Shown piece after piece: positions 8,707 through 61,919 of a stretch of DNA of 64,000 nt. Numbering within the stretch: position 1 is the first letter of the stretch; every line of letters begins with the position of its first letter. A program made the translations under genes and the position numbers. The stretch is from Bacilli bacterium. Its GTDB lineage: Bacteria > Bacillota_I > Bacilli_A > RF39 > UBA660. Location: contig JAGHHZ010000031.1 in the NCBI GenBank assembly GCA_017887425.1, positions 16,019-80,018 of the forward strand. Reading direction: 5' to 3'. The notes below the pieces were generated by a model, which saw nothing but the letters and a program-made list of their open reading frames with translations, had not been told where the DNA came from and searched no databases.

Positions 8707-8707
8707 A

Positions 8708-10625: not shown

Positions 10626-10645
10626 TAAAAAGGGTGTGATAATTT

Positions 10646-10963
10646 ATGAATAGTTTTTTAATACCAGCGAATGCAAAAAAATCTATGTTAATATTTGGTT
10701 TATTTACTAAATTTGATTTGATATTATTTTTAATAGGAATTGGGGCTTCTTTGTTAATGCTAGTCGTATTACCCGTTGAACAAATAGCAGTAGCAATAAT
10801 TGCTTTATTACCGGCATTAGTAACAGGGTTCTTGGTTATGCCAGTTCCTAATTACTATAATATGCGAACTTTACTTAGTTCGGCCATTCAATTTTTTATG
10901 AATCAAAGAAAATTCAAATGGAAAGGTTGGTGTGTTCCTCATGGCGAAAGCAAAAAAAGGTAG
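10646..10963 (+). CDS. PrgI/VirB3-like small membrane protein
   Basis: 105 aa. The N-terminus IPANAKKSMLIFGLFTKFDLILF followed by two TMs matches the PrgI-type pattern. Overlaps the start of VirB4. Confidence 0.5.
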   Translation: MNSFLIPANAKKSMLIFGLFTKFDLILFLIGIGASLLMLVVLPVEQIAVAIIALLPALVTGFLVMPVPNYYNMRTLLSSAIQFFMNQRKFKWKGWCVPHGESKKR

Positions 10964-13270: not shown

Positions 13271-13290
13271 AATAAGCGGTGGTGATGTAA

Positions 13291-15825: not shown

Positions 15826-15827
15826 TT

Positions 15828-16502: not shown

Positions 16503-16552
16503 TTAATTATGTGATATACTGTTATATAGGAATAATTAAGAGGTGAACCTAA

Positions 16553-28160: not shown

Positions 28161-28504
28161 GGGGCTGTCTAGTTTCGACGGAAATATTATTTTTAAAGGG
28201 CAAGTCGTCAAGGTATGACGTTATAATCCAAAATAAAAATATCTGGAAACAGAAACCAATTAGCTTTCGCTTAATAATTTAGAAGGCTGCTTCTTTATTT
28301 CTTTACTCACGGGAAGTAAAAGAGGCTCGATTAGTGAGTTATATCAACAATTTATTTTCTAGGATTGTTGATGAATTTAATAGAAATTACTAAGTAAAAT
28401 TTTGATAATTTATTATTACTTAGGACATCAACAAATTATCTAAACTTGTAGAACTTTAATCTTGGTATTTTCGGACAGGGGTGCGATTCCCCTCAGCTCC
28501 ACCA
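28161..28504 (+). ncRNA. ssrA: tmRNA (SsrA RNA)
   Basis: The 5-prime end GGGGCTGTCTAGTTTCGACGG pairs with the 3-prime end CAGCTCCACCA. The T-arm-like element is GGGGTGCGATTCCCC. The internal tag frame ends GNRNQLAFA followed by TAA TAA (28272-28277). Confidence 0.9.
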
Positions 28505-44281: not shown

Positions 44282-44372
44282 GGAGAAATACCCAAGTCTG
44301 GTTGAAGGGACCGGTCTTGAAAACCGGGAGGTCGGAAACGGCGCGGGGGTTCGAATCCCTCTTTCTCCGCCA
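44282..44372 (+). tRNA. tRNA-Ser (anticodon UGA)
   Basis: Acceptor stem GGAGAAA/TTTCTCC, anticodon loop CTTGAAA, long variable arm, CCA encoded. Confidence 0.9.
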
Positions 44373-44384
44373 TTTTGTTTATAT

Positions 44385-44461
<77 letters not shown>

Positions 44462-44462
44462 T

Positions 44463-44538
44463 GGTTCCGTAGTGTAGTGGTTATCACGTCTGCCTGTCAC
44501 GCAGAAGATCGCGGGTTCAAGTCCCGTCGGAACCGCCA
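44463..44538 (+). tRNA. tRNA-Asp (anticodon GUC)
   Basis: Acceptor stem GGTTCCG/CGGAACC, anticodon loop CTGTCAC. Confidence 0.9.
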
Positions 44539-44541
44539 TTT

Positions 44542-44617
44542 GGCTTCATAGCTCAGTCGGTAGAGCAAAGGACTGAAAATCCTTGTGTCGGTGGTTCGAT
44601 TCCACCTGAAGCCACCA
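44542..44617 (+). tRNA. tRNA-Phe (anticodon GAA)
   Basis: GGCTTCATAGCTCAGTCGGTAGAGC..., anticodon loop CTGAAAA. Confidence 0.9.
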
Positions 44618-44646
44618 TTTTATTAGATTGAACTCCAAGTGGTTTT

Positions 44647-44723
44647 GCGCCCGTAGCTCAGTTGGATAGAGTGTTTGGCTACGAACCAAAAGGTCAGGGG
44701 TTCGAATCCCTTCGAGCGCACCA
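44647..44723 (+). tRNA. tRNA-Arg (anticodon ACG)
   Basis: GCGCCCGTAGCTCAGTTGGATAGAG..., anticodon loop CTACGAA. One C-A mismatch in the acceptor stem. Confidence 0.85.
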
Positions 44724-44729
44724 TCTAAT

Positions 44730-44806
44730 CGGGAAATGGCTCAACTTGGTAGAGCACCTGGTTTGGGACCAGGGGGTTGCAGGTTCAAATCCTGTTTTCC
44801 CGACCA
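44730..44806 (+). tRNA. tRNA-Pro (anticodon UGG)
   Basis: Acceptor stem CGGGAAA/TTTCCCG, anticodon loop TTTGGGA. Confidence 0.9.
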
Positions 44807-48097: not shown

Positions 48098-48163
48098 ATA
48101 ATAATGGTATAAAGTCAATTTAATCACATATATTTTACTAACGATATGGAAAGTAGGGAATAT

Positions 48164-48556
48164 ATGGAAAAAATAGATATTATAAAAAGTATTACTAGTA
48201 GGACAGGAGGAGAAATTTATTTAGGCGTAGTCGGAGCTGTTAGAACAGGTAAATCAACTTTTATTAAAAAAGTAATTGAAAATTTAGTTGTACCTAATAT
48301 TGAAGATGAATATGAAAGAAAAAGATGTCTAGATGAAATTCCTCAATCGGCTCAAGGTAAAACTATTATGACAACTGAGCCTAAATTTGTTCCAAGTAAT
48401 GCTGCTAAAATAAGAATAGAAGACTTTACAGCTAGTGTAAAGTTAATTGACTGTGTGGGATATGTCATACCAGAAGCTAAAGGTTATGAGGATGAAAATG
48501 GGCCAAGAAAAGTAAGAACACCGTGGGAAGAACCCCAAATAGTGATACCACTATAA
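48164..48556 (+). pseudogene. spoIVA: spoIVA 5-prime fragment (about 125 of ~490 codons), interrupted by an inserted element
   Basis: MEKIDIIKSITSRTGGEIYLGVVGAVRTGKSTFIKK...LPQSAQGKTIMTTEPKFVP...LIDCVGY...AKGYEDENGPRKVRTPWEEP follows Bacillus SpoIVA nearly residue for residue. It then diverges (QIVIPL, stop) instead of continuing IPFxEAAEIGT. Confidence 0.8.
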
Positions 48557-48645
48557 AAAGTGTGTAAAAGCCTTATTTTATAAGGAATTGCAATATTAAC
48601 TTGTTAGTCATTTTTATAAAATTTTGTAAAGAAAGTGAGATTTAT

Positions 48646-49617
48646 ATGAATGAACTAAACAATGTTATAAATGATGAACTAATTGATTTATTGATTAAAT
48701 ATCGCAACATAACTGGTTATTTGTTCCCTATTGGAAAAGTCAAATCTATAAATAATGAAGAGTTAATTAAGCGTATAAAAATATGTATATCAGAAAAAAA
48801 GAGATATGATTTAAAATTATTTAAATTAAATAATATACAAATTATGACGGATGATGTTTTTGAAAAAATAATTCCTTTAATAAAGCAAAATATGGAAGAA
48901 GTTAACTATGACTATATTAACAAATCAAAAGAAATTATAAATATAATCAATTTAAGGAAATGTGGGAAAAAATTTAGTTTTTCTGAACATTTAAGTGCAT
49001 TAATATTTACTTTACTTAATAATAATCGTTGGGGAGATACAAATATAAAAGAAAATAAAAGTAAAATTTATTCTATCTTTCATGACTTTGACAAAAATTA
49101 TTTAAAATTAGTTGACCCAAATGAATTAATAAATGAATTAAAAAAATTGCACTGTAGCAATCCAGCAATAAAGAAACAACTTTATGCTCTTTCTTACAAT
49201 ATAAATATATTAGAAAAAATAGAAGAAGAACATAACAGCTTGGATGAATTTATATTAAAAAATGATCCCAATGATATTGCGATATGTTTTAGTGAAGGAA
49301 AATATAAGTTGAAACAAGTTGGTAAAGCTATTACTTTTGATTATTTGAAAATGGTAGGTATTGATTGTTGTAAATATAGTATTCAAATCGGACGATTATT
49401 TGGGAAAAATAGATTAGCTATTGTATCTAATGAAATAGCTACATTTGAACAAATATTATCTATAATAAAGAAATTATCAAAAATCAATAAAATAAGCGAA
49501 ATAGAGATAGAATTGATTTTACAACAATTTTGTTTATCAAAATCTGCTAATATTTGTGGTGAATTTCCACAGTGTGAAAAATGTAGACTAAAAAGTATAT
49601 GTAATTATAACAAATAA
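48646..49617 (+). CDS. HhH-GPD/endonuclease III-like protein with a [4Fe-4S] cluster motif and an extra N-terminal domain
   Basis: C-terminal CGEFPQCEKCRLKSIC has the Cys-x6-Cys-x2-Cys-x5-Cys spacing of the EndoIII/MutY cluster loop. LKQVGKAITFDYLKMVG resembles a hairpin-helix-hairpin. The ATG at 48646 is preferred over the TTG at 48601. Confidence 0.55.
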   Translation: MNELNNVINDELIDLLIKYRNITGYLFPIGKVKSINNEELIKRIKICISEKKRYDLKLFKLNNIQIMTDDVFEKIIPLIKQNMEEVNYDYINKSKEIINIINLRKCGKKFSFSEHLSALIFTLLNNNRWGDTNIKENKSKIYSIFHDFDKNYLKLVDPNELINELKKLHCSNPAIKKQLYALSYNINILEKIEEEHNSLDEFILKNDPNDIAICFSEGKYKLKQVGKAITFDYLKMVGIDCCKYSIQIGRLFGKNRLAIVSNEIATFEQILSIIKKLSKINKISEIEIELILQQFCLSKSANICGEFPQCEKCRLKSICNYNK

Positions 49618-49635
49618 ACCTCAAAAATGAGGTTT
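49616..49635. terminator. bidirectional terminator AAACCTCA-AAAA-TGAGGTTT
   Basis: Perfect 8-bp stem between convergent genes (stops at 49617 and 49644). Confidence 0.65.
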
Positions 49636-49643
49636 ATTTGACT

Positions 49644-49880
49644 TTATTCTTCAAAAAATTTATCTATTCTAGTATCAAGAATAATTGATATTTTATATAA
49701 TGTTATAAGAGATATATTATTTCTATCATTAGGCGACTCAATTCTTTTTAAATGATTTACTGATACATCAAGCTTTTCGGCTAAATCCATTAATTTGACA
49801 TTTTTTTCTTTTCTATATTTTTTGACATTTTTGCAAATAATTGCTTTTATATTAGCATTATAGTTTGGATATTCATTCAT
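49644..49880 (-). CDS. XRE-family HTH transcriptional regulator
   Basis: KNVKKYRKEKNVKLMDLAEKLDVSVNHLKRIES is an HTH_3-like pattern. Confidence 0.65.
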   Translation of the reverse strand: MNEYPNYNANIKAIICKNVKKYRKEKNVKLMDLAEKLDVSVNHLKRIESPNDRNNISLITLYKISIILDTRIDKFFEE

Positions 49881-50010
49881 ATAATAGCACCTTCTTTAAA
49901 AATATTATATGATTTTTTTGAGAATAAATAAGCAACCTTTCGTGCCTAAAAAATGTTGCAAAACTATTTTTATATGCTATAATAAAAATAGATATTAAAT
50001 CATATCTATG

Positions 50011-50268
50011 CTATTTTGTATTTACACGTTTAGGTAAAGGTGGAAGATTATCAGTAGGCATTAATAATTTATATGTTTCGATTTTTAAAACTTCAGCTAT
50101 TTTAGTTAATGTATCCAATTTCACGTTAGCACGACAAGTTTCAAGGTCACTAATATATCTATTGCTAAATCCACATTTCTCTGATAATTGTTCTTGCGAA
50201 TAATTTAATTTATAACGATAATACTTGATATTTTCTCCTAAATATTTACGAGTTTTAATATTATTCAT
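50011..50268 (-). CDS. XRE-family HTH transcriptional regulator (repressor-like)
   Basis: LGENIKYYRYKLNYSQEQLSEKCGFSNRYISDLETCRANVKLDTLTKIAEVL. Divergent from the rightward genes. Confidence 0.7.
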   Translation of the reverse strand: MNNIKTRKYLGENIKYYRYKLNYSQEQLSEKCGFSNRYISDLETCRANVKLDTLTKIAEVLKIETYKLLMPTDNLPPLPKRVNTK

Positions 50269-50358
50269 CTAACATCACCACTTCTAGTTTATCGTTTTTT
50301 TTAAAAAATAAACACGAACTAGTGTCCACAAAAAATAATATAATAGGAAAGTGATAAA

Positions 50359-50670
50359 ATGAAAGATTTTTTAGTAAAACCATTAATTAAAGAAACCGTT
50401 GCTTTTATGGAAAAAGATAATTTTTTAGATATTATAAATAAATATAAAAAACTTGAATATTACGTAGGCTTTGGTAAAGATTGCTTAATAATTAAGACAA
50501 GAAAGGAAAATTATTCGTTAGGAATTATAGAAGAAAATAAGATTTTGTATTGGCATCTAAAACCTTATAATAATTCTTATTTTGAGACAAAAGTAAATAT
50601 AGGAAAAGGTAATGTTGAAAAGCTTTTATTTGTTATTGAAGAAAATGAAAAATTATTTATAAATTCATGA
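50359..50670 (+). CDS. hypothetical protein
   Basis: 103-aa ORF after an AGGAAAGTGA RBS. First rightward gene after the divergent region. Confidence 0.4.
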   Translation: MKDFLVKPLIKETVAFMEKDNFLDIINKYKKLEYYVGFGKDCLIIKTRKENYSLGIIEENKILYWHLKPYNNSYFETKVNIGKGNVEKLLFVIEENEKLFINS

Positions 50671-50784
50671 ATTAAAATAAATAAGGTGTAAACAAAATGC
50701 GTAAATTCATTAAAATATATTTAAATAAATTTAATATTTATGTATAATATAAATATCTTGATAAATTTTTTTGGAGGTGGCAGT

Positions 50785-51105
50785 ATGAACTATTCAAACA
50801 ATTTGTCAGAGTTTTTAGAAAATATAAATGTTAATTCAAACATTAAAAAAGAATTCAAAGAATTTACTAATTTTACTGTAATAGCATATTATCAACAAAT
50901 AAATGCTGAAACATTAGAAAATGAAAAAGTACAATATGTAGTTGAACTTTTAATTGCTGGAAATAACGTAAATTTTAAAAAAGTAATTTATGATGGAACA
51001 GACAATAGCCATGCAATGAAAGAATATGAAAAGCTTGTTGATGACTTAAATAATAATGAAGAATATTTTTCTAAAATTTTGATGTACGAAAAAGAACAAA
51101 AATGA
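50785..51105 (+). CDS. hypothetical protein
   Basis: ATG at 50785 after GGAGGTGG (the track start at 50740 is probably too early). Confidence 0.4.
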   Translation: MNYSNNLSEFLENINVNSNIKKEFKEFTNFTVIAYYQQINAETLENEKVQYVVELLIAGNNVNFKKVIYDGTDNSHAMKEYEKLVDDLNNNEEYFSKILMYEKEQK

Positions 51106-51233
51106 ACGCAAAAAGTACGAAAATGTAATTGACTAGAAAAAATCAAGTGATATAATATGGTAAAATGCAATCAATTTAAAGAAGATGAGTTTACTCATTT
51201 TCTTTTTGCAAACGATTAATTTTAAAAAAAGCA

Positions 51234-51261
51234 TTGACATTAAGGAAAAATTTGGTAAAAT
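51234..51261 (+). promoter_or_regulatory. sigma-A promoter TTGACA-16-TGgTAAAAT
   Basis: -35 at 51234-51239 and extended -10 at 51253-51261. Confidence 0.45.
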
Positions 51262-51352
51262 AGTTAACAATTATTTATTAAAACGAGATGATGCTATGTA
51301 TAAAGGAAAGAATTACGGTTATATTGTTAATTATTTAAAGTATATAAAAATT

Positions 51353-51398
51353 AAAAATCATTTATAGGTTTTTTATCCCCTAAAAATGATTTTTTTTT
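51353..51398 (+). terminator. long imperfect hairpin + T run directly upstream of the RBS of 51417
   Basis: AAAAATCATTT-A-TAGG ... CCTA-A-AAATGATTTTT (about 15 bp), then TTTT. AAGGAGG follows at 51403. Confidence 0.55.
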
Positions 51399-51416
51399 GT
51401 ACAAGGAGGATATATC

Positions 51417-51881
51417 ATGAATGATGAATACGAAGTAAGTTTATTATCAACCAAGTTTATTAATAAGTACGATATGGATAAAACTATATGTCGGTTAATT
51501 AAATTTATGGAAGAATATAAAAAATTAGAATTTCAATCATCGAGCGAAACCTGTTTATTAACGGCTAAAGATTTCTCTCAAATTTTTGTTGATCGTAGTT
51601 TTAATAATGATACATATTTTAAACTTGATAAGAAAATAGATGCAGAAAAAGAATATAATGAAATTTCTTATAAAATATCAATTATAAACAAGAAAATGAC
51701 GGCTGAAGAAAAAGCATATTTTAGCATTGTTTTTCGTGATATGAAAACCGAATATGTAGCTAGTAATATAATTGGTAGATCTCGTAATGGATTAAAAATT
51801 ATTAGAAATAGTTGTGCTTTAAAAATAGCTATAGCATTTAATTTGGATGTTCTTAAATCCGAAACAATAATAGATGAATAA
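51417..51881 (+). CDS. putative transcriptional regulator (ArpU/sigma region-4-like guess)
   Basis: The C-terminal KAYFSIVFRDMKTEYVASNIIGRSRNGLKIIRNSCALKIA looks like a sigma region-4 HTH. Such genes are common in phage and ICE late-gene control. Confidence 0.35.
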   Translation: MNDEYEVSLLSTKFINKYDMDKTICRLIKFMEEYKKLEFQSSSETCLLTAKDFSQIFVDRSFNNDTYFKLDKKIDAEKEYNEISYKISIINKKMTAEEKAYFSIVFRDMKTEYVASNIIGRSRNGLKIIRNSCALKIAIAFNLDVLKSETIIDE

Positions 51882-52701
51882 TTTGAAAGGAGGTGATAAG
51901 ATAGAGTTATGTCCATTTTATTCGACAGATTTGGGTAAGTTATATAAAGGTGATTGTTTAGAAGTCATGGATTATTTAATAGAACAAAATGCAAAATTCG
52001 ATGCCATAATTACTGATCCACCTTATGCTATAACTAATTATAGTTGGGATCAGATTATACCTTTTAATGAAATGTGGAAACGACTATTAAAACTTATTAA
52101 AGATGATGGAGCAATTGTATTGTTTGGCAATGAACCATTTTCCAGTAGTTTAAGAAAAAGTAACGAAAAGTTTTATCGCTATGATTGGAAATGGTTAAAA
52201 ACACAAGTTACAGGATTTCAAAATTCCAAATGCCAACCACTTCGTTGTTATGAAGATATAATGGTATTTTCAAAAGCTGGAGCAGTAGCTAATGCCAAAA
52301 ACAAGATGTGTTATTATCCACAGGATTTAATAAAAGTAAATTTAGCTGTAAAACGTTCATCAGTTGATTATTTAAAGGAACAAAAAAATATAAATAAAAT
52401 TGAGGCAATTCAAGAATATTCTAACTATCCTAGAAATGTAATTCAGTTTGAAAGAGAGTCAACTATATTTCATCCGACTCAGAAACCGATGAATTTAATG
52501 GAATATTTAATATTAACTTATACTAAAGATGGCGAATTTGTTTTGGACTTTACATCAGGTAGTGGTACTACATTATTAAGTTGTGAACTTTTAAATCGAC
52601 ATTGGGTTGGTATTGAGATTAATGAAAAGTATTGTCAAGTAATTAAAAGAAGAATTAAAAATGGAATTCAACTAAAATTAAACTTTGAAAGAAAAGAATG
52701 A
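51874..52701 (+). CDS. DNA methyltransferase, beta-class N6-adenine/N4-cytosine, no adjacent endonuclease
   Basis: Motif IV IITDPPYA precedes motif I VLDFTSGSGTT. FHPTQKP block present. Confidence 0.85.
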   Translation: MNNLKGGDKIELCPFYSTDLGKLYKGDCLEVMDYLIEQNAKFDAIITDPPYAITNYSWDQIIPFNEMWKRLLKLIKDDGAIVLFGNEPFSSSLRKSNEKFYRYDWKWLKTQVTGFQNSKCQPLRCYEDIMVFSKAGAVANAKNKMCYYPQDLIKVNLAVKRSSVDYLKEQKNINKIEAIQEYSNYPRNVIQFERESTIFHPTQKPMNLMEYLILTYTKDGEFVLDFTSGSGTTLLSCELLNRHWVGIEINEKYCQVIKRRIKNGIQLKLNFERKE

Positions 52702-52964
52702 TAAAAAAAGAGGAGGATTGTTTTATTGAGATAATTTTAGAAAGTGTTTTAAAACTAATTAATGATGCAATGGGATATTTAAGACTGTTTGTCATAGGAG
52801 GAACAGCTTTTTTTGTGGCTAAAGATTATGCTTTAAAGATGGCTAGTTCAGATGATAATCAAAAAGCATCATATGATCGAAAAATTAAAACAACTATTAT
52901 TGCAGGTGTTTTGGCGTTAGTGACAACTGAATTTGTTAATTGGATATTGGGGTATTTTAAATAA
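52698..52964 (+). CDS. small two-TM protein (VirB2/TrbC-like candidate)
   Basis: LRLFVIGGTAFFVAKDYALKMASSDDNQK...TTIIAGVLALVTTEFVNWILGYF is a helix-loop-helix like the pair at 7830-8656. Confidence 0.35.
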   Translation: MIKKEEDCFIEIILESVLKLINDAMGYLRLFVIGGTAFFVAKDYALKMASSDDNQKASYDRKIKTTIIAGVLALVTTEFVNWILGYFK

Positions 52965-53356
52965 TGAAGCAAGAATTTATATCAAATATTCAAAATATTT
53001 TAGATGAAAAACAAATTGAGAATATTCCATTAACAAGAGTCGATTTGTTAAAAGATGTGCTAAACGATAAAGAATTATTTGAAATGTTTTATAGTAATTT
53101 TTCAAAATATTTTAACGAAAATTTTTCGATAGAAGATTTGTTAATGAAGACTGAAGATTTTCTTTATCGGTTACATTATGTAATAGATAAATGGCTGATT
53201 CCCATTCATCATAAAGAAACTAAAAATGAAATCATTGAGTTTTTTAAAAATCTAAAGAATATTGATTTATATAGTGGTGTATCTTATGATGATTCTGATA
53301 AAGAAATTTTAGAAGAACTAGAAGAAACTTTTCATGGAAAGGAATATAAAATATAA
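52964..53356 (+). CDS. hypothetical protein
   Basis: 130-aa ORF, start overlapping the previous stop (TAATG). Confidence 0.4.
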   Translation: MKQEFISNIQNILDEKQIENIPLTRVDLLKDVLNDKELFEMFYSNFSKYFNENFSIEDLLMKTEDFLYRLHYVIDKWLIPIHHKETKNEIIEFFKNLKNIDLYSGVSYDDSDKEILEELEETFHGKEYKI

Positions 53357-53628
53357 TGCAAAATAATTATATAAATTTCATTAAAAGTCATAATTTAGTT
53401 AATCGAATATATGATATGCTTTTTTATTTTGGAACGTTAAAAGATGAAAAAAATGAAAAGACTGTAAAAAAGTTTTTTGTTAAAAAGTTAGATGATATCG
53501 AATATGTTGAAACATTAGCTAAGTACTTTGAAAGAAAATTAAAGCAGTATAAAGATAAAGTAGAAATAAAATGTAATTTATTAGATTTAATTAATGATTT
53601 AAATTATTTAAAACAATATCTATTATAA
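53356..53628 (+). CDS. hypothetical protein
   Basis: 90-aa ORF, TAATG-coupled to the previous ORF. Confidence 0.4.
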   Translation: MQNNYINFIKSHNLVNRIYDMLFYFGTLKDEKNEKTVKKFFVKKLDDIEYVETLAKYFERKLKQYKDKVEIKCNLLDLINDLNYLKQYLL

Positions 53629-53678
53629 AATTTGTAAAAAATTAAAATATATTGTACAATGGCAATAGGAGTGATACT

Positions 53679-54383
53679 ATGAAAAATAAGAAAAAAATTG
53701 TTGTTATATTGTTAGTCATTGTACTTGTTTTTTCAATTGCCATTTTTACTTTAAATATTAATAATAAAAGAACTAAAAATTCTAATGACAACATAAATAA
53801 TAAATTAGATTCATCTGATTTAGATAATAATGAAATTAAAGATAATCTTGATAATGATATGAACAAAAGTATTTTAGAAGATTCTAAAAGTCCAAACAAT
53901 GAAAACAAAGAAACTTATGATAGCCAAAATGTAAATATTAATCCAATAATTGAAGACGAAATTAAAAATAATGAATCAATTACTAGTGATGATAAAGTTT
54001 CAAATGATGATAATAAAAATAGTATTAATGAATTTGAAGAAGAAAAGGAAGAAGTTAATAAAAATACTAATGATGATGAAGAAGTAAATGAAATCATTGA
54101 AACTAATGAAGAGGAAGAAGAGGAATCAACCAAACCGATTGATGAGAATATAATAGATACTAATCATTTTATGTATTCTATTCATCAAGGAAGAATTGAT
54201 TGTGATACTAAAGAACAGTGTTTAGCAATTGGAACTGAAATAGCTTTTATTGATACTGTTGATATTCGTTACTTTAATTGTATAGAAGTAAAATCCACGA
54301 CAAATAAAACGCTTGGATATTATTTAGACATTGTTTGCTATTCAGGAAATTGTGAAAGGTATAAAAGTGAAAATGTTAATTAA
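53679..54383 (+). CDS. secreted or anchored acidic low-complexity protein with Cys-containing C-terminal domain
   Basis: ATG at 53679 after TAGGAGTGA. Signal/TM KKKIVVILLVIVLVFSIAIF. Asn/Asp/Glu-rich middle region. The C-terminal ~70 aa contain 6 Cys. Confidence 0.5.
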   Translation: MKNKKKIVVILLVIVLVFSIAIFTLNINNKRTKNSNDNINNKLDSSDLDNNEIKDNLDNDMNKSILEDSKSPNNENKETYDSQNVNINPIIEDEIKNNESITSDDKVSNDDNKNSINEFEEEKEEVNKNTNDDEEVNEIIETNEEEEEESTKPIDENIIDTNHFMYSIHQGRIDCDTKEQCLAIGTEIAFIDTVDIRYFNCIEVKSTTNKTLGYYLDIVCYSGNCERYKSENVN

Positions 54384-54417
54384 TTTTAACATTTTTTTTG
54401 TTAAAGGAGGAATTTAA

Positions 54418-56880
54418 TTGAAGAAAAAGAATTACAAATTGCTATTAATTGGAATAGCAATTCTATTTATGTCTATTTTTGGAATAAAAGGCATATATGC
54501 TTTGTCAAAAAATGGAATTTTGACCAGAAAATATGTTGATGATATGTACTATGAAAGAACAAAAACGGACTATTATCATTCTCATCAATATTCAACATTT
54601 GATGTAAGTGGTAAGGTCGCATATTGTATTGAACCAGTAACTAATATAACTGAATATGAATACGTTGGTAGTGATGATTTAATTGAGGCATCAGGTTTAT
54701 CTGATGAAGAAATAAGAAAAATACTTTTATATGCTTATTATGGATATGAATATCCAAACCATGGAACTATGGAATATAGAGCTGCCACACAAACACTAAT
54801 TTGGGAAGAAGTAAGTGATTTTAAGTATGAATATCATACCAAATTAAATGGCAAAGGTGATTATATTGACTTAAGTGATGAGATTAAAGAAATAGAAAAT
54901 TTAATAAAAAACCACGATAAAAAACCATCATTTAATGGAATCACTATTGATGCAGTTGTTGGTGAAACAGTAACTTTGACTGATGAAAATAATGTTTTAT
55001 CCAATTATGAAGTCTATGGTAATAATATTGCAAATGTAAAAATTAGTGGTAATAAATTATCATTCAAAGTAGAAAAACTAGGCGAAATAGATTTGCGTTT
55101 TGTAAAGAAACAATATTTAGATGAAGTAGCACTAGTATACACGAGTGGCGATAGTCAAAAACTACTAACATCAGGAGCTTTAGATCCTGTGTATTTTAGT
55201 TTTAAAGTAAATACACTATTAGGGAAAGTATCATTAAAAAAAATAGACGCAGATACTGGAATTGGTATTCCTCAAGGTGATGCTTCATTAAGTTGTGCTA
55301 TTTATGGAATTTATAAAATTGATGGGACTCGTGTCGGTGAATTAAAGACTAGCGAGAACGAATATGTTGTAAGTGATGTTTGGTTAAAAATAGGTGATTA
55401 TTATTTATTGGAAGAACAATCTTCAATTGGATATGAGTTAGATAATACCAAATATTATTTTGAAATAACTAAAGATAATTTATATCCTCAAATCGAAGTG
55501 GTAGAGAAAGTTATTGAGAAAGAGCTAAAAATATTTAAAGTGTTTGCTAGTGACCAAACTGGATTTTTGATTGGAGAACCTAATGTAACATTTGATATTT
55601 ATTTAAAGTCAAATGGACAAAAAGTTACTAGCATTACTACTGATGACCAAGGTTTTGCAAGTACCAAATTGCAATATGGCATATATGTAATAAAGCAAAA
55701 AACAGGGACACAGGATCATGAATTTGTAAAAGATTTTGAAGTTGTTATTGATGAAAATGTTGAAAATTCAATTTATAAATTGCTTTCAAATGCTGAAATT
55801 AAAGCAAGGCTTAAAGTAGTAAAAGTTGATAAAGAAACTGGTAATGTTATTGCACGAGGTGGAATAAAATTTAAAATCTTTGATGTGAATAATAATGAAT
55901 ATGTTTGTCAAACGACTAATAAAGTTCAATGTGTTTTTGAGACTAATGAAGATGGAATTTTACTCACACCATTGCCTTTAAATTCTAGCACATATCGACT
56001 TGAAGAGGTAGAACAAGATATAGATGGATATTTATGGAATAGTCAATCTAAAGAGTTTACTATTGGCGAAAATACTGAACTAATTACTGATTCTACTTAT
56101 GGAATAATTTTTGAAATGCAGTTTGAAAATCAACCAGTAAAAGGTAATGTTGAAATATATAAAACTGGTGAGAAAATTGTTTTTGAAGATGGAACTTATT
56201 ATTATGAAAAAATAAATTTAGATGGAGTAGTATTTGAACTAATAGCTAATGAAGATATTATTTTTGGAGGGAAAAAATATTATTCTAAAGGTGAACTAGT
56301 AGCTACTTTAATTACCGATGAAAATGGCTATGCATCATTAAGAGATTCACTAATTCCTTTAGGAAAATATCAATTAAGGGAAATTAAATCTAATCATAAT
56401 AATCTTATTAATCCAACTGTTTATGAATTTGAATTAAGCTATAAAGATCAATATACCGAAGTTATTTATGAAACTTTTTATTTAAATAATGAATTACCTA
56501 AAGGTGAGTTAGAATTCACTAAGACTGATTTTATAAATGATAAAGCTTTACCTAATACTAAAATTGAAATTTATACTGAAAATAATGTTAAAATTTTTGA
56601 AGGTTATACTAATGAAAATGGGAAGATTATAATTCAAAATTTGCCGATTGGTAAATTTTATATTTTAGAATCAGAAGCACCAGAAGGATATATTTTAAAT
56701 GATGAAAAAATATGGTTTGAAATAAAAGAAAATGGCGAAATTGTTAAAGCTAATATGTTTAATGAGCAAGTGGATGTTCCTAATACATTAAAAAATTCAA
56801 ATAATATATTAGAGATAAATTCAGTATCATTTATTATAATTGGAGTTGGTTATATTATCTATGCGAGTAGAAAAAAGTAG
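54418..56880 (+). CDS. cell-wall-anchored thioester-domain adhesin with SpaA/CnaB-type repeats
   Basis: Signal peptide. Thioester motifs AYCIEP and AATQTLIWE (TQxA). Several prealbumin-like repeats (e.g. GELEFTKTD...NGKIIIQNLPIGKFYILESEAPEGY). C-terminal VPNTL + TM + SRKK. Confidence 0.8.
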   Translation: MKKKNYKLLLIGIAILFMSIFGIKGIYALSKNGILTRKYVDDMYYERTKTDYYHSHQYSTFDVSGKVAYCIEPVTNITEYEYVGSDDLIEASGLSDEEIRKILLYAYYGYEYPNHGTMEYRAATQTLIWEEVSDFKYEYHTKLNGKGDYIDLSDEIKEIENLIKNHDKKPSFNGITIDAVVGETVTLTDENNVLSNYEVYGNNIANVKISGNKLSFKVEKLGEIDLRFVKKQYLDEVALVYTSGDSQKLLTSGALDPVYFSFKVNTLLGKVSLKKIDADTGIGIPQGDASLSCAIYGIYKIDGTRVGELKTSENEYVVSDVWLKIGDYYLLEEQSSIGYELDNTKYYFEITKDNLYPQIEVVEKVIEKELKIFKVFASDQTGFLIGEPNVTFDIYLKSNGQKVTSITTDDQGFASTKLQYGIYVIKQKTGTQDHEFVKDFEVVIDENVENSIYKLLSNAEIKARLKVVKVDKETGNVIARGGIKFKIFDVNNNEYVCQTTNKVQCVFETNEDGILLTPLPLNSSTYRLEEVEQDIDGYLWNSQSKEFTIGENTELITDSTYGIIFEMQFENQPVKGNVEIYKTGEKIVFEDGTYYYEKINLDGVVFELIANEDIIFGGKKYYSKGELVATLITDENGYASLRDSLIPLGKYQLREIKSNHNNLINPTVYEFELSYKDQYTEVIYETFYLNNELPKGELEFTKTDFINDKALPNTKIEIYTENNVKIFEGYTNENGKIIIQNLPIGKFYILESEAPEGYILNDEKIWFEIKENGEIVKANMFNEQVDVPNTLKNSNNILEINSVSFIIIGVGYIIYASRKK

Positions 56881-57475
56881 AAAGTTATGGTTTATTATTA
56901 GTTTTTTGCTTATATTTATTGGTACATTTTTAATTTTTAATAAATACTATAGGTTTGCAAAGGAGGATAAAATAGAACGAAAAAAAATCCAAGAATTCTT
57001 TGAATTTACTGAAAATGAAATAAATATTGATAATATAGAGGTTGTCAATTCAAATGTTCAAGAAAATAATTATATCGCTGTTTTAGAGATACCTAAAATT
57101 AATTTAAAAAAAGGATTGTTACCGAAAGATAATGAACATAATAACGTCAACGAAAATGTGACTATTTTAAAAGAATCAGATATGCCAGATATAGAAAAAG
57201 GTAATTTTATTTTAGCCTCACATTCAGGAACTAGCAAACAAGCTTTTTTTAAAAATGTTTACAAGTTAGATATTGGCGATGAAATTTATGTTTACTATAA
57301 AAATAAAAAATATGTATATAAAATAGTTGATAAATATGAGCCTAAAAAAACAGGTAAGGTGAATATAAAAAGAGATATTAATAAAAGTACTCTAACATTG
57401 ATAACTTGTAAGGCTTTTACTGATAAACAAATCGTGATTATTTCACAACTTTTAAATTTTTATAGTATAAAATAG
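56861..57475 (+). CDS. sortase (dedicated to the adjacent adhesin)
   Basis: N-terminal TM. His in ILASHSG. Cys in LTLITC. Overlaps the adhesin stop. Confidence 0.75.
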   Translation: MRVEKSRKLWFIISFLLIFIGTFLIFNKYYRFAKEDKIERKKIQEFFEFTENEINIDNIEVVNSNVQENNYIAVLEIPKINLKKGLLPKDNEHNNVNENVTILKESDMPDIEKGNFILASHSGTSKQAFFKNVYKLDIGDEIYVYYKNKKYVYKIVDKYEPKKTGKVNIKRDINKSTLTLITCKAFTDKQIVIISQLLNFYSIK

Positions 57476-57487
57476 TATTGATTAAGT

Positions 57488-58819
57488 TTGGGAGGAATTA
57501 ATGTTTTAGATATAAGTCAGGTAGAACAACATTGGTATTCTGATATTTTTAGAAGTATCCTTTGGTCAATAGCTAAAGGAATACTAAATTTACTTGATGG
57601 CTTTTTTAATGTTATTAATAAGATATGGCAGTATGATTTTTTTAATAATGAATATGTTGATAAGATATTTAGTGGTGCGATTATAGTTGCATCAACTTGG
57701 CTAATTCTAAAAGTTGTCATTGAATTAGTTATGAATTACATTGTAAAAAATGAAGGAAGAGACACACCACTATCGGCTTATCGTGGCATATTGTTTGCAA
57801 TAATAATGATGTTTTTGATACCTTATCTTTTTCAGTTTGGTCATGCAATTTCAAGTGGTCTTACTAATTCCGTTTTAGCAGTTTCTAATATTGATGAAAG
57901 TACTAATGTTGAAAGTACCATTTCAAATTCATTAGTTGAATCGATGATATATAAAAATGAGACAAAAAGTGAACACGTCTCAGAATTGATTAGAAATTGG
58001 AAAACAATTGATATAAATGCTACTGAAGATGGTATTTTAGGATTTGGTGATGTTTATAAATATTCATTAAACTTTTTTATGTTAATTGTACTTTCTATTA
58101 TTACGATTTTTTTGTTATTTTTTGTAGCTATTCAAATGGCTAAACGAGTTTTGGAAATTGCTTTATATAAAATTATCGGACCTTTTTGTGCTACTTCTTT
58201 AACTAGTCAAAACAAAACTTTTGAACTTTGGTGTAAATCTACGATGGGAGCTTTTTTAGTAACGGTTGTTCAATTCATTGGGATTGGTTTACTTTTAACT
58301 TTATTTGGTAGTGCCTTTCAAGAAACAGGTACATTAACAGGTATTTTTCTAGTGATAGGAGCACTTTTATTTATTATTTCTACACCAACTCTTATTAATA
58401 GTCTTTTAAATCAGCAATCAGGAATGATGGCAGGTTTCGGTGATCTGCAATCAATAATAGCGATTGGTCATTTAACAGGTCAGGGAATAGGCTTGGCGAG
58501 TGCAGGTTTATCTAGTGCTTTATCGATTGGTTCAACAGTATTTAATTCTAGTTCTAAATTAATGAATGGGGGGATTTCGAGAATATCTAACATGATGAAT
58601 AATAATAAATTAAATCCTGAACAAATGAGCATTGTTAAAGATAGCATTTCAAGTAATAACTCTTATAAAGCTCAAAATCAAGTAAAAGAATTTCTAAATG
58701 AAAATAAAAAGACACCAACATTTAATAATAATCAATTTAATAATTTAAATCATTTATCTAATATGCACTATAATACTATGAAGGATAATTTTATTAGTAA
58801 AGATAAAGGAAAATTATAA
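57488..58819 (+). CDS. VirB6/TrbL-like polytopic membrane protein
   Basis: Multiple TMs. Lies directly upstream of a PrgI-like ORF, as at 8760-10963. The start codon is uncertain (TTG at 57488). Confidence 0.5.
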   Translation: MGGINVLDISQVEQHWYSDIFRSILWSIAKGILNLLDGFFNVINKIWQYDFFNNEYVDKIFSGAIIVASTWLILKVVIELVMNYIVKNEGRDTPLSAYRGILFAIIMMFLIPYLFQFGHAISSGLTNSVLAVSNIDESTNVESTISNSLVESMIYKNETKSEHVSELIRNWKTIDINATEDGILGFGDVYKYSLNFFMLIVLSIITIFLLFFVAIQMAKRVLEIALYKIIGPFCATSLTSQNKTFELWCKSTMGAFLVTVVQFIGIGLLLTLFGSAFQETGTLTGIFLVIGALLFIISTPTLINSLLNQQSGMMAGFGDLQSIIAIGHLTGQGIGLASAGLSSALSIGSTVFNSSSKLMNGGISRISNMMNNNKLNPEQMSIVKDSISSNNSYKAQNQVKEFLNENKKTPTFNNNQFNNLNHLSNMHYNTMKDNFISKDKGKL

Positions 58820-58820
58820 C

Positions 58821-59090
58821 ATGTATTTAATTCCTAAAAATATAAAAATAAAAAAAGAAATATTTAAAGGTTTTGGCATATTAGAAATAATGGCTATGGC
58901 AGTATCCTTTGGTATAGGATTTATATTACAATCGTTTATATCTAACTATAAAATTAAAGTAGTGCTTTTTATTATTGTCCCTATTACAACTTTTTTATTA
59001 TTACTTCCTCTACCTAATGGTAGTACATCATTAATTATTTTAAAAAAGTTTATAATTTATAAAAATAGACAAAAGAATTATAAATTATAA
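58821..59090 (+). CDS. PrgI/VirB3-like small membrane protein
   Basis: MYLIPKNIKIKKEIFKGFGILEIMAMAV, then two TMs. Same pattern as 10646-10963. Confidence 0.5.
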   Translation: MYLIPKNIKIKKEIFKGFGILEIMAMAVSFGIGFILQSFISNYKIKVVLFIIVPITTFLLLLPLPNGSTSLIILKKFIIYKNRQKNYKL

Positions 59091-59142
59091 ACATAAATTA
59101 TGTGGTATAATTAGTGTGATGAAAATGCAGGAGATGTGAAAT

Positions 59143-59553
59143 GTGGATAATAAAGAAATCGAAGAAGAAACTATTAAGTCAAAAGCGAAAATGTATTCAT
59201 TAATAGTATTTTCTATAATTGTAATAATAATAATTTTTATTTTGGTATTTATATTTAGTATAAAATCTGCATTTAATAGTTTTTCTCAAAAAACTTATTA
59301 TATATTAGATGTTACATCAGAAAACAAAAATAAAATTATTGAATTATTTGAAAAGGAAAAAGAAAATATATTCTATGATAAAAACTTTTGTGATTCAATT
59401 TATAGAATTGAATATTATCATACTTTCCCTGATGGAACAAGTTATACTATGTATTGCAAAGATGAAGATAATATCACTTTTAATATAGACAAAGCTGAAG
59501 AAGATACTTTAGCAAACTATATTTATAAAAACGGCTTTACTGAAAAAAGATAG
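59143..59553 (+). CDS. N-anchored hypothetical protein
   Basis: GTG start. TM YSLIVFSIIVIIIIFILVFIF, then about 95 soluble residues. Confidence 0.4.
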   Translation: MDNKEIEEETIKSKAKMYSLIVFSIIVIIIIFILVFIFSIKSAFNSFSQKTYYILDVTSENKNKIIELFEKEKENIFYDKNFCDSIYRIEYYHTFPDGTSYTMYCKDEDNITFNIDKAEEDTLANYIYKNGFTEKR

Positions 59554-60102
59554 ATGGAGGATGAGATGTCGATGATTGATACAAAAGATATAATAGTACA
59601 AGCAGAAAAATTTTATGAAACAGCAAAAGATTGTATAGGTATTGAATATAACAATGGTTGGTATGTAGGTGATAAAGAACTTTCTACTGAAGAATTGAAA
59701 AAATATCTCTTTCCCAAAAATGTTGTGACAGCAACAGTTAATCTCGCTTTTTGTTGTGAATTATTATTGAAATCTATGTTAAATAATGGTGCGAAAATAA
59801 AAGGACATAAATTAAGACCTTTATTTAACAAATTAGATGAGAAATGGAAGCAACTTATAATCCTAAAAATGGGGTATGAAAATAGCAATCAGATATTTTA
59901 TCATTTATTAGATGAAATATCTAATAGTTTTGAAAAGTGGAGATATATATATGAGTGTAAACTAGAAGATCGTAAAATTCAGTTTTCGTTTTTAAATAAT
60001 TTTAGTATAATTTTAATGTGCGTTGCTCATGCAAAATATTTTTATGAAAAGAAAGAATTTGATAAAATTGATTCTAAAGATTTGGAATTAATTCTAAAAT
60101 AA
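59554..60102 (+). CDS. hypothetical protein, HEPN-like helical pattern (weak)
   Basis: LAFCCELLLKSMLNNGAKIKGHKLRPLF ... FEKWRYIYE resembles the helix-2/3 (..LKa.l...g...HdL..L) and ..RY.. pattern of non-catalytic HEPN domains. Confidence 0.35.
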   Translation: MEDEMSMIDTKDIIVQAEKFYETAKDCIGIEYNNGWYVGDKELSTEELKKYLFPKNVVTATVNLAFCCELLLKSMLNNGAKIKGHKLRPLFNKLDEKWKQLIILKMGYENSNQIFYHLLDEISNSFEKWRYIYECKLEDRKIQFSFLNNFSIILMCVAHAKYFYEKKEFDKIDSKDLELILK

Positions 60103-60215
60103 AAATTTTTAATATTATTCATTTATTTTGATGTTTTAAAATTGTTGGTGAACTAATGGTATGTTTTATTTTTTATTGAAAGTAGTATAATTTTATATTA
60201 GAAAGAAGGGTTATT

Positions 60216-60893
60216 TTGGATCAAAGTAAAATAGGAAGATTTATTTCAGAATTAAGGAAAGAAAATAATTTGACGCAAGAACAATTAGCCAATAAACTAG
60301 GGATAACAAAGAATGCAATTAGTAAATGGGAAAGAGGAATTTGCTTAATGGATATTTCATTGTTGGAACCATTAAGTAAAATCCTTAATGTTTCGGTTTT
60401 GGAATTATTAAATGGTGAAAAAATAAACGATGTTGATTTAATAAAAAAGACTGAAGATAGTATAAGTATAGTATTAACTTTCTCTAAAGAAAAAATTAAT
60501 GAATATAGAAAAAAAGTAATTTTATCATTTTTATTTTTAATTAGTTTATCACCAATGCTTTTGAATCAGTATGGAGCATTAAAAGGTGTTCAGGAAATCA
60601 GTGGAATAATTAATTTAATCAATCCAATAGGCTTATTATCATTTATATCATATTTTTTAGGAGTTTGGATTAATTTTAAACATAAAAAATATAATAGAAT
60701 TTTAGGTTCGATTGGCGTGATTGGAATTATAATATCAGAAATTTATCAATTTTTAACTTGGCATAATATTGGTATGAGTTTTAAAATAGACTTTTTAAGT
60801 AGTATATCAAATGCTTTTCCAGAGTTTTATTTTGGACTATTTATTTCGATTATTATGTCAATAGTTTATTTTAGAATGAATAAAGAAAACTAA
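60216..60893 (+). CDS. XRE-family HTH protein fused to a polytopic membrane domain
   Basis: TTG after GAAGGG. HTH ISELRKENNLTQEQLANKLGITKNAISKWERG. At least 4 TMs follow. Confidence 0.6.
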   Translation: MDQSKIGRFISELRKENNLTQEQLANKLGITKNAISKWERGICLMDISLLEPLSKILNVSVLELLNGEKINDVDLIKKTEDSISIVLTFSKEKINEYRKKVILSFLFLISLSPMLLNQYGALKGVQEISGIINLINPIGLLSFISYFLGVWINFKHKKYNRILGSIGVIGIIISEIYQFLTWHNIGMSFKIDFLSSISNAFPEFYFGLFISIIMSIVYFRMNKEN

Positions 60894-60945
60894 TAATTTT
60901 AGAGGTGATTATATAAATAAAATAATAAATTTTAGTTATGGTAAA

Positions 60946-61314
60946 TTGCTACTAGAGGTGATGAGCTATTCGAATAACAAACGAATAGCTCTTTCTTCAT
61001 ATTTGATTGAAGAAGATGATCCTTATGGATTTATAACTATAAATTTGGATATACCAATTAGTGATATAGATGAAGGATTTATCGATTCTGATATAGAAAG
61101 TAGCAATTTAGTTCCAATTTTAAAAGAATTAGGAATTATAAAAGAATCATATGGCTTTATACCATATAACTATGGAACTTATGAATATGTAAAGTTCGAT
61201 TTAAATAAGCTTAAAGAATATGATAAAAAAGGAGTTGAAGAATATATAAAAATAGCAAATAAAAATAGTAAAAGTATTTTACTAGGAAATGAAAATTTTG
61301 ATTTAAAAATATGA
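60946..61314 (+). CDS. small ICE protein, DUF4313-like pattern (paralogue of the next ORF)
   Basis: YSNNKRIALSSYLIEEDDPYGFITINLDIPI...GFIDSD...YNYGTYEYVKFDLNKL. The start codon is uncertain. Confidence 0.4.
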   Translation: MLLEVMSYSNNKRIALSSYLIEEDDPYGFITINLDIPISDIDEGFIDSDIESSNLVPILKELGIIKESYGFIPYNYGTYEYVKFDLNKLKEYDKKGVEEYIKIANKNSKSILLGNENFDLKI

Positions 61315-61321
61315 AGGAGGA

Positions 61322-61693
61322 GTGATTATAAATCAAAAGAGAAAAATAAAATTAAATGGCAAATATTATAATATAAATGTTACTACATATAAAAATAATC
61401 GAATATGTTTAGAATTTATTAATAAAGAAGAAAAACACGAACTTACTATTAATTTAGAGGATGTTTATATAGATAATGGTCGTGTTTTTTTAAATCCTAT
61501 TGTTAAGAAAAATGGTTTATTAAAAGAATTAAAGAAGAAAAGAATTATTAAAGATATTTGTGGAAGTATAAATTATAATTATATTGATATTCCTATTGCA
61601 GTATTAAATATGGGAATTCTTCGTAAATTTGATAATTATGGTGTGAATAAATATTTGCAAAGAATAAATGGTTTAGAGGACTATTATGAATAG
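61322..61693 (+). CDS. small ICE protein, paralogue of 60946-61314
   Basis: YKNNRICLEFINKEEKHELTINLEDVYI...VFLNP...INYNYIDIPIAVLNMGIL parallels the preceding ORF. Confidence 0.4.
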   Translation: MIINQKRKIKLNGKYYNINVTTYKNNRICLEFINKEEKHELTINLEDVYIDNGRVFLNPIVKKNGLLKELKKKRIIKDICGSINYNYIDIPIAVLNMGILRKFDNYGVNKYLQRINGLEDYYE

Positions 61694-61919
61694 TCATTTA
61701 AAATTATATGATACACACATTACTATCCGTTTGAGCAAAAAAGAAAAGCAAATTTTTAAAAGAAATGCTTATCGAAAAAAGCTTACTATGTCTGATTATC
61801 TTCGAAGTCTTATTTTATTAGATAATCGATTAAATTCTATTTCTTCTAAATTAGATAAAATAAATAAAGAAATCAATGAAGTTGGTTTAGCAAGTACTTA
61901 TATTGGGAGGTATTTATAG
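61686..61919 (+). CDS. ribbon-helix-helix MobC-like relaxosome accessory protein
   Basis: ITIRLSKKEKQIFKRNAYRKKLTMSDYLRSLIL has the typical RHH/MobC layout. Confidence 0.45.
   Translation: MNSHLKLYDTHITIRLSKKEKQIFKRNAYRKKLTMSDYLRSLILLDNRLNSISSKLDKINKEINEVGLASTYIGRYL

Follow-up and report, generated by a model that had tools for sequence, protein, structure and literature searches.

Integration of a conjugative element into the sporulation gene spoIVA of uncultured gut Bacilli, with excision in the mother cell as a plausible means of rejoining the gene

The sporulation genes known to be split by intervening DNA, as compiled by Suzuki et al., are sigK, spoIVFB (as printed there), spoVR, spsM and gerE, plus kamA (PMC6957869); apart from the small gin element, the residents of these genes are prophages or their remnants. 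Elements so built, when they lie in mother-cell genes, are known to be excised in that cell (PMC6957869, PMC5595907, PMC5025042), and Suzuki et al. have also engineered an ICEBs1 that carries the SPbeta unit (PMC6957869). The gene considered in this study, spoIVA, is described in the literature on Bacillus subtilis and Clostridioides difficile as mother-cell specific and as a target of sigma-E. In the 64,000-nucleotide stretch of a Bacilli bacterium analysed here (contig JAGHHZ010000031.1, hereafter the window, of about 25% guanine-plus-cytosine (GC) content), the ATPase domain of SpoIVA is interrupted at codon 121 by an integrative and conjugative element (ICE). We regard it as practically certain that a large serine recombinase (LSR) integrated this ICE site-specifically into spoIVA, leaving halves that can be rejoined, and that empty sites in conspecific strains, horizontal spread and a dedicated recombinase clade belong to the same picture. 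The best explanation overall, which we consider probable, is that the attL of the ICE lies at codon 121 of spoIVA and that excision in the mother cell rejoins the gene. The features on which this rests are as follows.

48164..48526, plus strand: spoIVA 5' part, codons 1-121 (MEK...RTPW), with the Walker A motif GAVRTGKS (Pfam; collinear with the intact conspecific alleles to 48526)
48524..48526, plus strand: TGG core common to attL, attR, attB and the inferred attP (from comparison of attL in the window, attR in locus L022 and attB in locus L019)
48527..48550, plus strand: P' arm of attL, GAAGAACCCCAAATAGTGATACCA (dyad analysis of the inferred attP)
48527..48556, plus strand: element-encoded tail EEPQIVIPL and stop of the truncated SpoIVA (reading of the open reading frame, alignment to intact alleles)
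48527..64000, plus strand: left 15.5 kb of the ICE of about 31.8 kb (identity to locus L010; overlaps among L010, L022 and L013)

The open reading frame (ORF) that contains the spoIVA 5' part extends from 48146 to 48556 on the plus strand, encodes 136 amino acids and matches Pfam SpoIVA_ATPase over positions 1-127 of 237 (E 8e-56), while an exact database look-up of the 136-aa product gave no match. The true start is likely to be the ATG at 48164, since the orthologues all start there and a conserved GAAAGTAGGG ribosome-binding stretch precedes it, so that the native part would comprise 121 codons. To reach relatives of this locus, two routes were used, the neighbouring HisS protein and the cluster members of intact SpoIVA. 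The identical HisS protein occurs on many public contigs, of which 6 are shown; 3 of these (L015, L016 and L019) have an uninterrupted spoIVA of 491 aa, and the other 3 (L014, L017 and L018) a gene truncated like that in the window. The insertion therefore varies between strains, and the conspecific empty sites define attB, which is the use that a sequence-only reading of this DNA had foreseen for uninterrupted relatives.

Alignment to the three intact alleles showed that homology ends exactly after the Trp-121 codon TGG (48524-48526). The window reads ..ACACCGTGG|GAAGAACCCC at the break, the alleles being identical up to ..ACACCGTGG; past 48526 the intact genes continue with TATGATGAAGAAATTCC (YDEEIP) and the window with GAAGAACCCCAAATAGTGATACC, and 370 spoIVA codons are absent after the break. 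The sequence-only reading was thus right that a conjugative element splits spoIVA, with 121 native codons where it had put about 125, and right about the QIVIPL-stop tail; its break site of 48533-48552 lay 7-26 bases too far to the right, and its estimate of about 365 missing codons was too low. Its statement that no SpoIVA-like sequence follows in the remaining 15.4 kb was borne out by tblastn with full-length SpoIVA as query, which found no other such stretch in the 64 kb.

We also searched with the N-terminal fragment, and approximately 65 cluster representatives of the 120 best matches diverge right after TPW and run into sequence with GTGATACC about 15 nt in. Fragments of a V.LNK type were considered as the product of a differently oriented element and rejected, because the same GTGATACC arm is present in them. 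At first sight the many 126-aa N-terminal fragments at contig ends resemble a family of short proteins, and they are what could be said for an assembly chimera or for a lineage-specific, naturally short SpoIVA-like protein. Both are scarcely credible: the junction is identical in independent assemblies from different studies (L014, L017, L018 and L194), the fragments all leave SpoIVA homology at one codon and enter an att arm bearing GTGATACC, and the matching 3' halves are found beside recombinases. The naturally short protein, which the sequence-only reading had kept as an alternative, is refuted by the intact conspecific alleles and those 3' halves. As a separate observation, at least 4 independent assemblies (L001-L004) break approximately 40-130 bp after the spoIVA junction (attL), a pattern to be anticipated where a sample contains integrated forms next to empty or excised ones, or where the element is repeated.

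The right junction was recognised through the 90%-identity cluster of intact SpoIVA, which includes a 300-aa C-terminal fragment (P0243) found on the contigs L022-L029. The gene order on these contigs is ICE tail genes (an ABC ATPase, ArdC-N and three small ORFs), an LSR of 527 aa, a 50-bp spacer and the spoIVA 3' part, and attR reads ..GGTATCACTTTAAAGGTTCTCCC TGG TAC GAT GAA GAA ATT CCT TTT ATT GAA GCT GCC GAA ATA GGA (W YDEEIPFIEAAEIG), followed by the remaining spoIVA. A recombinase and a spoIVA 3' part starting near IPF.EAAEIGT had been predicted for the far end, and both are seen in these contigs of the same ICE. Positions 51686 to 64000 of the window share 99.5% identity with L010, and the final 1.39 kb of L010 matches the beginning of L022 at 100%. 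One record is the source of both L013 and L022, which overlap; another, of 63.6 kb, is the source of L194 and L010, which overlap too, and has attL and the ICE up to the stretch identical to the start of L022. The NikA-like protein of the window is identical in L008-L013, and the composite ICE has a size of 31,792 bp. It has an integrase, attL, attR and an empty attB in related strains, together with a relaxase, a coupling protein, a VirB4-class ATPase and channel components, as an ICE should.

When the 5' part in the window and the 3' part in L022 are joined at TGG, the result is an ORF of 491 aa with one terminal stop and 2 substitutions relative to the intact allele, and joining the halves likewise restores the ORF in L005, with an element of 4,280 bp, and in L020, with an element of 8,317 bp at a second site. 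Two intact halves in register with each other are present in the combination of the window with L022, as well as in L005, L020 and L195, and the 3' halves in L111, L112, L114, L115 and L116 match SpoIVA as single continuous stretches. Between split and intact alleles there are 31-37 synonymous and 0-3 non-synonymous codon differences, so the divergence of the split allele is dominated by synonymous changes, the same pattern as among intact alleles.

The attachment sites were compared to locate the crossover. The sequences attL, attR and attB have only TGG in common, and the same Trp codon is used in L005 and L195. The crossover dinucleotide would be TG or GG, both of which are non-palindromic, as required. 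The inferred attP is TGGTATCACTTTAAAGGTTCTCCC-TGG-GAAGAACCCCAAATAGTGATACCA, in which TGGTATCACT, in the P arm from the opposite element end, recurs without mismatch in inverted form as the outer 10 bases of the P' arm, AGTGATACCA (48541-48550). These perfect 10-bp outer repeats are centred on the first G of TGG, and 16 of 28 positions of the dyad are symmetric, the outer repeat included. The layout is the one usual for a large serine recombinase. The junction strings are ..GGTTCTCCCTGGGAAGAACCCC.. for attP and ..ACACCGTGGTATGATGAAG.. for attB, and the GTGATACC motif lies at the same distance from the junction in L005, L001, L191 and L195. A palindrome pointed out by the sequence-only reading is also found close by:

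48571..48585, no strand assigned: 15-nt palindrome CCTTATTTTATAAGG, with a 6-bp stem and a 3-nt loop, outside the att site and with no T-tract after it

The palindrome is present as described, and the proposal that it marks the recombination site was rejected because it lies outside the recombinase arm at 48527-48550 and is not conserved in L005 or L001. As a terminator it was unconvincing and was not called.

The mobility of the element is evident from the record NODE_369 (L194). Between HisS and the spoIVA 5' part, the chromosome of this record shares only 84.4% identity with the window, and farther upstream the gene order is no longer conserved, while the ICE at the same spoIVA codon is 99.46% identical to that in the window over 10 kb. 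A nearly identical ICE at the same codon beside so divergent a flank means recent horizontal transfer between species, and the ICE is therefore mobile and site-specific.

The 527-aa LSR has the Pfam domains PF00239 (Resolvase), PF07508 (Recombinase) and PF13408 (Zn_ribbon_recom) and the motif YIRLSREDG..NQ near its N-terminus; it matches the integrase family phrog_95 (E 7.5e-101), and none of the LSRs in the searched phage collection reaches 35% identity with it. In a metagenome scan, all six homologues with at least 59% identity and with downstream DNA present adjoin a spoIVA 3' part, and none of those with 44% identity or less does so. An LSR of 55% identity (L195) also adjoins a spoIVA 3' part, and the examined relatives of 55-67% identity are all located beside spoIVA 3' halves, in elements with unrelated cargo. 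The element in L005 encodes an LSR that shares 62% identity with the window-type enzyme, along with an ABC ATPase, two membrane proteins and a small ORF; that in L110 has a Mob_Pre relaxase, a RelA/SpoT protein and a YcaO cluster; and in L195 (GCA_044432745.1, 1878-9707; about 10 kb) the only large cargo is an ORF of 2,609 aa without a recorded Pfam match, accompanied by a small ORF. All three are inserted at the Trp-121 site (site 1). In the protein database, approximately 117 LSR clusters (at 90% identity) span 53-100% identity and are followed by a gap down to 45%, which suggests a clade of recombinases dedicated to one spoIVA codon.

In addition, spoIVA has a second insertion site at approximately codon 405 (..KAVAPSIH|MIRVD..) with the core CATAT, occupied in L020 (10001-19793; ENA ERZ24773485 NODE_11) and also in L021. 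The site-2 element of 8,317 bp carries a small resolvase, an ORF of 91 aa and an LSR of 546 aa that is only 26% identical to the site-1 enzyme and whose ORF crosses attR into spoIVA sequence. Outside spoIVA, LSRs approximately 38% identical to the spoIVA enzyme adjoin a minus-strand sigK 3' fragment (NCBIfam SigK, E 5e-35; loci L130 and L132, downstream of 11548) and for that reason look skin-like, and LSRs approximately 43% identical adjoin an ORF with LysM repeats whose best match is a SafA/ExsA domain at 62.9 bits versus a cut-off of 67.85 (loci L120 and L123).

These findings bear on whether the insertion is without effect because another part of the genome has a second, intact copy of spoIVA, a possibility raised by the sequence-only reading and left some room by the data, which cover a 64-kb window. 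We judge it very improbable, given that no other SpoIVA-like sequence occurs in the window and that a paralogue would leave the recurrent targeting of the gene by two LSR lineages unexplained.

Excision by an LSR in a chosen direction calls attention to accessory genes and to the promoters that may drive them, and the following features are relevant.

48107..48134, plus strand: putative spoIVA promoter, with -35-like GTATAAA (48107-48113) and -10-like CATATATT (48127-48134)
48646..49617, plus strand: first gene of the element, encoding a divergent HhH-GPD (EndoIII/Ogg superfamily) protein, with an alternative start TTG at 48601
49611..49640, no strand assigned: bidirectional terminator-like hairpin with a 13-bp stem, closing the unit of spoIVA 5' part and HhH-GPD-like gene (terminator prediction)

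Two candidate directionality or accessory factors were identified. The first is a small ORF of 38-67 aa that starts MY..EF(F/Y)..G..LKE.LKS.I..YY, lies just upstream of or overlaps the LSR start, and is present in 9 of the 9 site-1 elements examined (L022, L005, L111-L116 and L195). The second is the HhH-GPD-like protein, whose homologues (40-52% identity) are the first gene after the truncated spoIVA in L110, L191, L192 and L193, where the other genes differ; in L001 an ORF with a similar beginning (MKNEQI..) comes first, after which the contig stops. Neither candidate resembles a known directionality factor, and the HhH-GPD-like protein and the small ORFs had no match in Pfam, PHROGs or NCBIfam. 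A profile of the HhH-GPD-like protein built from 55 homologues matches Ogg in the PDB at E 6e-4 and EndoIII/MutY more weakly, and its predicted AlphaFold2 (AF2) model, with a predicted local distance difference test (pLDDT) value of 92, gives Foldseek template modelling (TM) scores of 0.62-0.65 normalised to the target MjOgg. It has a C-terminal CX5CX2CX5C motif in which C304, C310, C313 and C319 are nearly invariant. The motif KPDxH of the wider family, with the catalytic Asp, is replaced by K(Y/T/S)(S/T)xQ in the window protein and the proteins closest to it; with that Asp lost, the protein would be glycosylase-like and probably non-catalytic.

No terminator was predicted between the stop of the spoIVA 5' part and the HhH-GPD-like gene, and a strong one follows at 49611-49640, so that the gene is probably transcribed from the spoIVA promoter. 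This promoter is putatively assigned to sigma-E by analogy with what is known for spoIVA of B. subtilis and C. difficile, and a TCATATAtTT -10-like element is conserved at the same place 5' of spoIVA in L005, L020, L001 and L110. Upstream of the small ORF, a (C/A)ATAnAAT -10-like motif is conserved in most elements, with AATAG.A. in L116 and L195.

As to the mechanism, the LSR at the far end integrated the ICE into the Trp-121 codon TGG of spoIVA; by analogy with skin, SPbeta, skinCd, gin and phi3T, the LSR and a directionality factor would, after asymmetric division, recombine attL with attR in the mother cell only, the rejoined spoIVA would let the mother cell make its coat-basement ATPase, and the forespore chromosome would keep the ICE. 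This recombination unit would also release the ICE for conjugation in vegetatively growing cells. The mother-cell promoter of spoIVA itself could drive the HhH-GPD-like gene as a candidate factor. We regard developmental excision as such as moderately probable, on the grounds of precedent, the bias of this LSR group to mother-cell genes and the synonymous-dominated divergence. A more elaborate version, in which the ICE has captured the promoter of its target as a developmental timer, is speculative and in our view doubtful: sigma-E readthrough from the spoIVA 5' part would express the HhH-GPD-like gene, whose catalytically dead product would be the excision factor or assist it, spoIVA would be rebuilt, exit would be confined to the mother cell, and the excised ICE, bearing a type IV secretion system (T4SS), would find itself in a terminal cell, from which transfer by conjugation would cost the germ line nothing, coupling sporulation to conjugation.

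A number of observations weigh against excision during development. The window ends inside the ICE, and its right junction and 3' half were inferred from contigs with the 99.5%-identical ICE; for the strains bearing the element, an excised circle, an attP junction or a rejoined gene was not observed, and a search of IMG/VR for the attP junction gave no match. Because SpoIVA is required at an early, sigma-E-controlled stage, excision would have to be completed in a shorter time than for late genes such as sigK or spsM. No element promoter could be assigned to sigma-E or sigma-K; CATAnAAT is not claimed as a sporulation-type promoter of the small ORF and LSR, being absent in L116 and L195 and overlapping a sigma-A-like TAnAAT, so that a weak sigma-A -10 fits equally well. 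The HhH-GPD-like gene is not a universal directionality factor, as L005 lacks it. In L113 (2749-3186), the spoIVA 3' part beside the recombinase is in frameshifted pieces and ends at approximately residue 259, indicating that at least some insertions end in decay.

Some of these points would also fit plain insertional inactivation, according to which the conserved stretch coding for TPWYDE is a mere reliable attB, as tRNA genes are elsewhere, the carriers are asporogenous or sporulate after rare vegetative excision, and no timed excision takes place. The decayed 3' part in L113 and the want of an assignable sporulation promoter in the element agree with this explanation, any ICE requires vegetative excision anyway, and loss of sporulation is common in gut Firmicutes. 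The prevalence of uninterrupted genes counts in its favour too, and against developmental excision: a scan of genome contigs with full-length SpoIVA found uninterrupted spoIVA in 80 of the 80 best species-representative genomes by score. Since the best 80 by score are full-length, the scan speaks to taxonomy and is no survey of split genes. We nevertheless consider inactivation unlikely, because two unrelated LSR lineages occupy different sites of the same mother-cell gene and relatives adjoin sigK, a bias to mother-cell genes being the hallmark of elements shown to excise in sporulation (PMC6957869). The intact and in-register halves (window plus L022, L005, L020 and L195), the continuous 3' halves (L111, L112 and L114-L116) and the synonymous-dominated divergence, like that of intact alleles, argue in the same direction, and minimal elements such as the 4.3-kb one in L005 persist without transfer genes, which would be natural for a recombination unit that must be kept in order to restore the gene. 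We retain excision in the mother cell, which would rejoin spoIVA, as the explanation.

The remaining genes of the ICE that lie in the window are given below.

49644..50268, minus strand: two XRE-type helix-turn-helix (HTH) regulators, 49644-49880 and 50011-50268 (Pfam HTH_3)
51874..52701, plus strand: N6/N4 DNA methyltransferase (Pfam PF01555, E 5e-31)
54418..57475, plus strand: surface adhesin with thioester domain and SpaA repeats (54418-56880) and sortase (56840-57475) (Pfam)
57488-58819, plus strand: TrbL/VirB6-like T4SS membrane component (Pfam TrbL_4, E 5e-17)
58821-59090, plus strand: PrgI-like T4SS membrane component (PrgI E 8.5e-5, under the curated cut-off)
60216..60893, plus strand: membrane-anchored XRE-type regulator (Pfam HTH_3)
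61686..61919, plus strand: NikA-like relaxosome accessory protein (Pfam PF21983)
62000..64000, plus strand: VirB4/TraC-like T4SS ATPase, 5' two-thirds, cut by the window end (frame translation; Pfam on the full gene in related loci)

The EndoIII-like, XRE and T4SS genes that the sequence-only reading had recognised downstream of the break correspond to the HhH-GPD protein, the two XRE regulators and, by Pfam, the T4SS components. The two XRE regulators are likely the repressor module of the ICE. The full VirB4/TraC gene encodes 767 aa in L008-L013 and is followed there by an M23 hydrolase, a MobL relaxase and a T4SS-DNA_transf coupling protein; the rest of the ICE (L010, L013 and L022) comprises the M23 peptidase, the MobL relaxase, the type IV coupling protein, the ABC ATPase, ArdC-N, small ORFs, the LSR and attR.

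Elsewhere in the window and its relatives, several features were noted. A second conjugation-like cluster (571-18712), unrelated to the spoIVA ICE, contains the following genes.

1660-2499: RcpC/CpaB-like
2502-3653: T2SSE-type ATPase
11486-13270: VirB4/TraG-P-loop ATPase
13291-15825: SpoIID+CHAP cell-wall hydrolase
16553-18712: type IV coupling protein

The lowest-GC stretch (19-24% GC) contains an ORF of 1,531 aa at 23339-27934 with no Pfam match at E 1e-5. A tmRNA gene (28161-28504; tag GNRNQLAFA) and a cluster of seven tRNAs (Ser, Met, Asp, Phe, Arg, Pro; 44282-44806) are present, and neither is an att site of the ICE. The DNA 3' of spoIVA varies among conspecific strains, with HU directly after the gene (L019, 5044-5316) or an island of about 10 kb between them (L016, 5258 onwards; L022, 11216-20611), which encodes a Gp10_C protein, an RHS/YD-repeat protein of 2,017-2,031 aa, a holin and a GH25 lysin.

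The nearest SpoIVA genes belong to metagenome-assembled genomes labelled uncultured Bacilli or Tenericutes and include those of Candidatus Faecisoma merdavium (94% identity), a genus placed by NCBI in Mycoplasmatota incertae sedis, and Acholeplasma sp. CAG:878 (85%). No cultured carrier was identified in the protein database listing of the LSR clade, and a full-text literature search turned up neither spoIVA among the reported targets nor a natural ICE among the intervening elements of sporulation genes. To the known cases the present locus would add a new target, spoIVA, whose early-acting ATPase underlies coat and cortex as a whole; intervening DNA that is a natural conjugative element of recent transfer; and a recombinase clade of about 117 clusters dedicated to one spoIVA codon in uncultured low-GC gut Bacilli or Mollicutes-like bacteria, together with an unrelated recombinase at site 2. 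If the excision is developmental, ICEs, like phages, would exploit the division into mother cell and forespore for carriage free of cost, and an essential early morphogenetic gene would tolerate reconstitution on demand. The new pairs of LSR and att sites, with a defined 50-bp attP and a conserved attB, may also be possible tools for genome engineering.

Among known systems, conjugative elements of Firmicutes with LSRs are represented by Tn5397/TndX and Tn4451/TnpX, which resemble the spoIVA ICE in LSR-mediated integration and excision of a conjugative element and in having VirB4, a coupling protein, a relaxase, a hydrolase and a sortase-anchored adhesin; to our knowledge, elements of this type do not target a sporulation gene with excision that restores the frame. 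The gin element in gerE of Bacillus cereus ATCC 10987 (PMC5595907) is similar in being non-phage and in having its own serine-type recombinase and a regulator module. It differs in that it has no conjugation machinery, has three recombinase genes, and is found in another target and host lineage.

Closer parallels are the skin element of B. subtilis sigK, with the recombinase SpoIVCA and the directionality factor Skr, and skinCd of C. difficile, with CD1231 and CD1234, where, like here, an LSR lies at one end of an element that splits a mother-cell gene. They share with the spoIVA ICE a short att core with imperfect inverted repeats, precise joining that restores the ORF, and conspecific strains with and without the element, and it is to sigK fragments that the LSRs of approximately 38% identity are adjacent in metagenomes. 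The target in those systems is a late sigma factor and the element a defective prophage, whereas here the target is an early sigma-E morphogenetic ATPase and the element a complete conjugative one, with its recombinase, unlike that of skin and skinCd, co-oriented with and directly beside the 3' gene part. For the ICE, developmental excision is proposed and the directionality factors are candidates.

Active mobile elements in mother-cell genes are also represented by SPbeta (SprA-SprB; spsM) and by phi3T and phi12-5 (kamA) (Abe 2014; Suzuki 2019, PMC6957869). In these, one unit of attL, rdf, int and attR serves both transfer and reconstitution of the gene, as the corresponding unit of the spoIVA ICE would by analogy, and the directionality factors are small proteins, as the conserved ORF of 38-67 aa near the LSR start would be. 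The genes spsM and kamA are dispensable for viable spores, unlike SpoIVA, which is essential for coat and cortex assembly in B. subtilis; and the known elements are phages, whereas that in spoIVA is a T4SS-bearing ICE. By these likenesses, spoIVA is probably one of the sporulation genes that DNA excision makes whole again in the mother cell. Systems of this kind are known already, and the novelty lies in the gene that is targeted, in the conjugative character of the element, in the host lineage and in the glycosylase-like gene conserved at attL.

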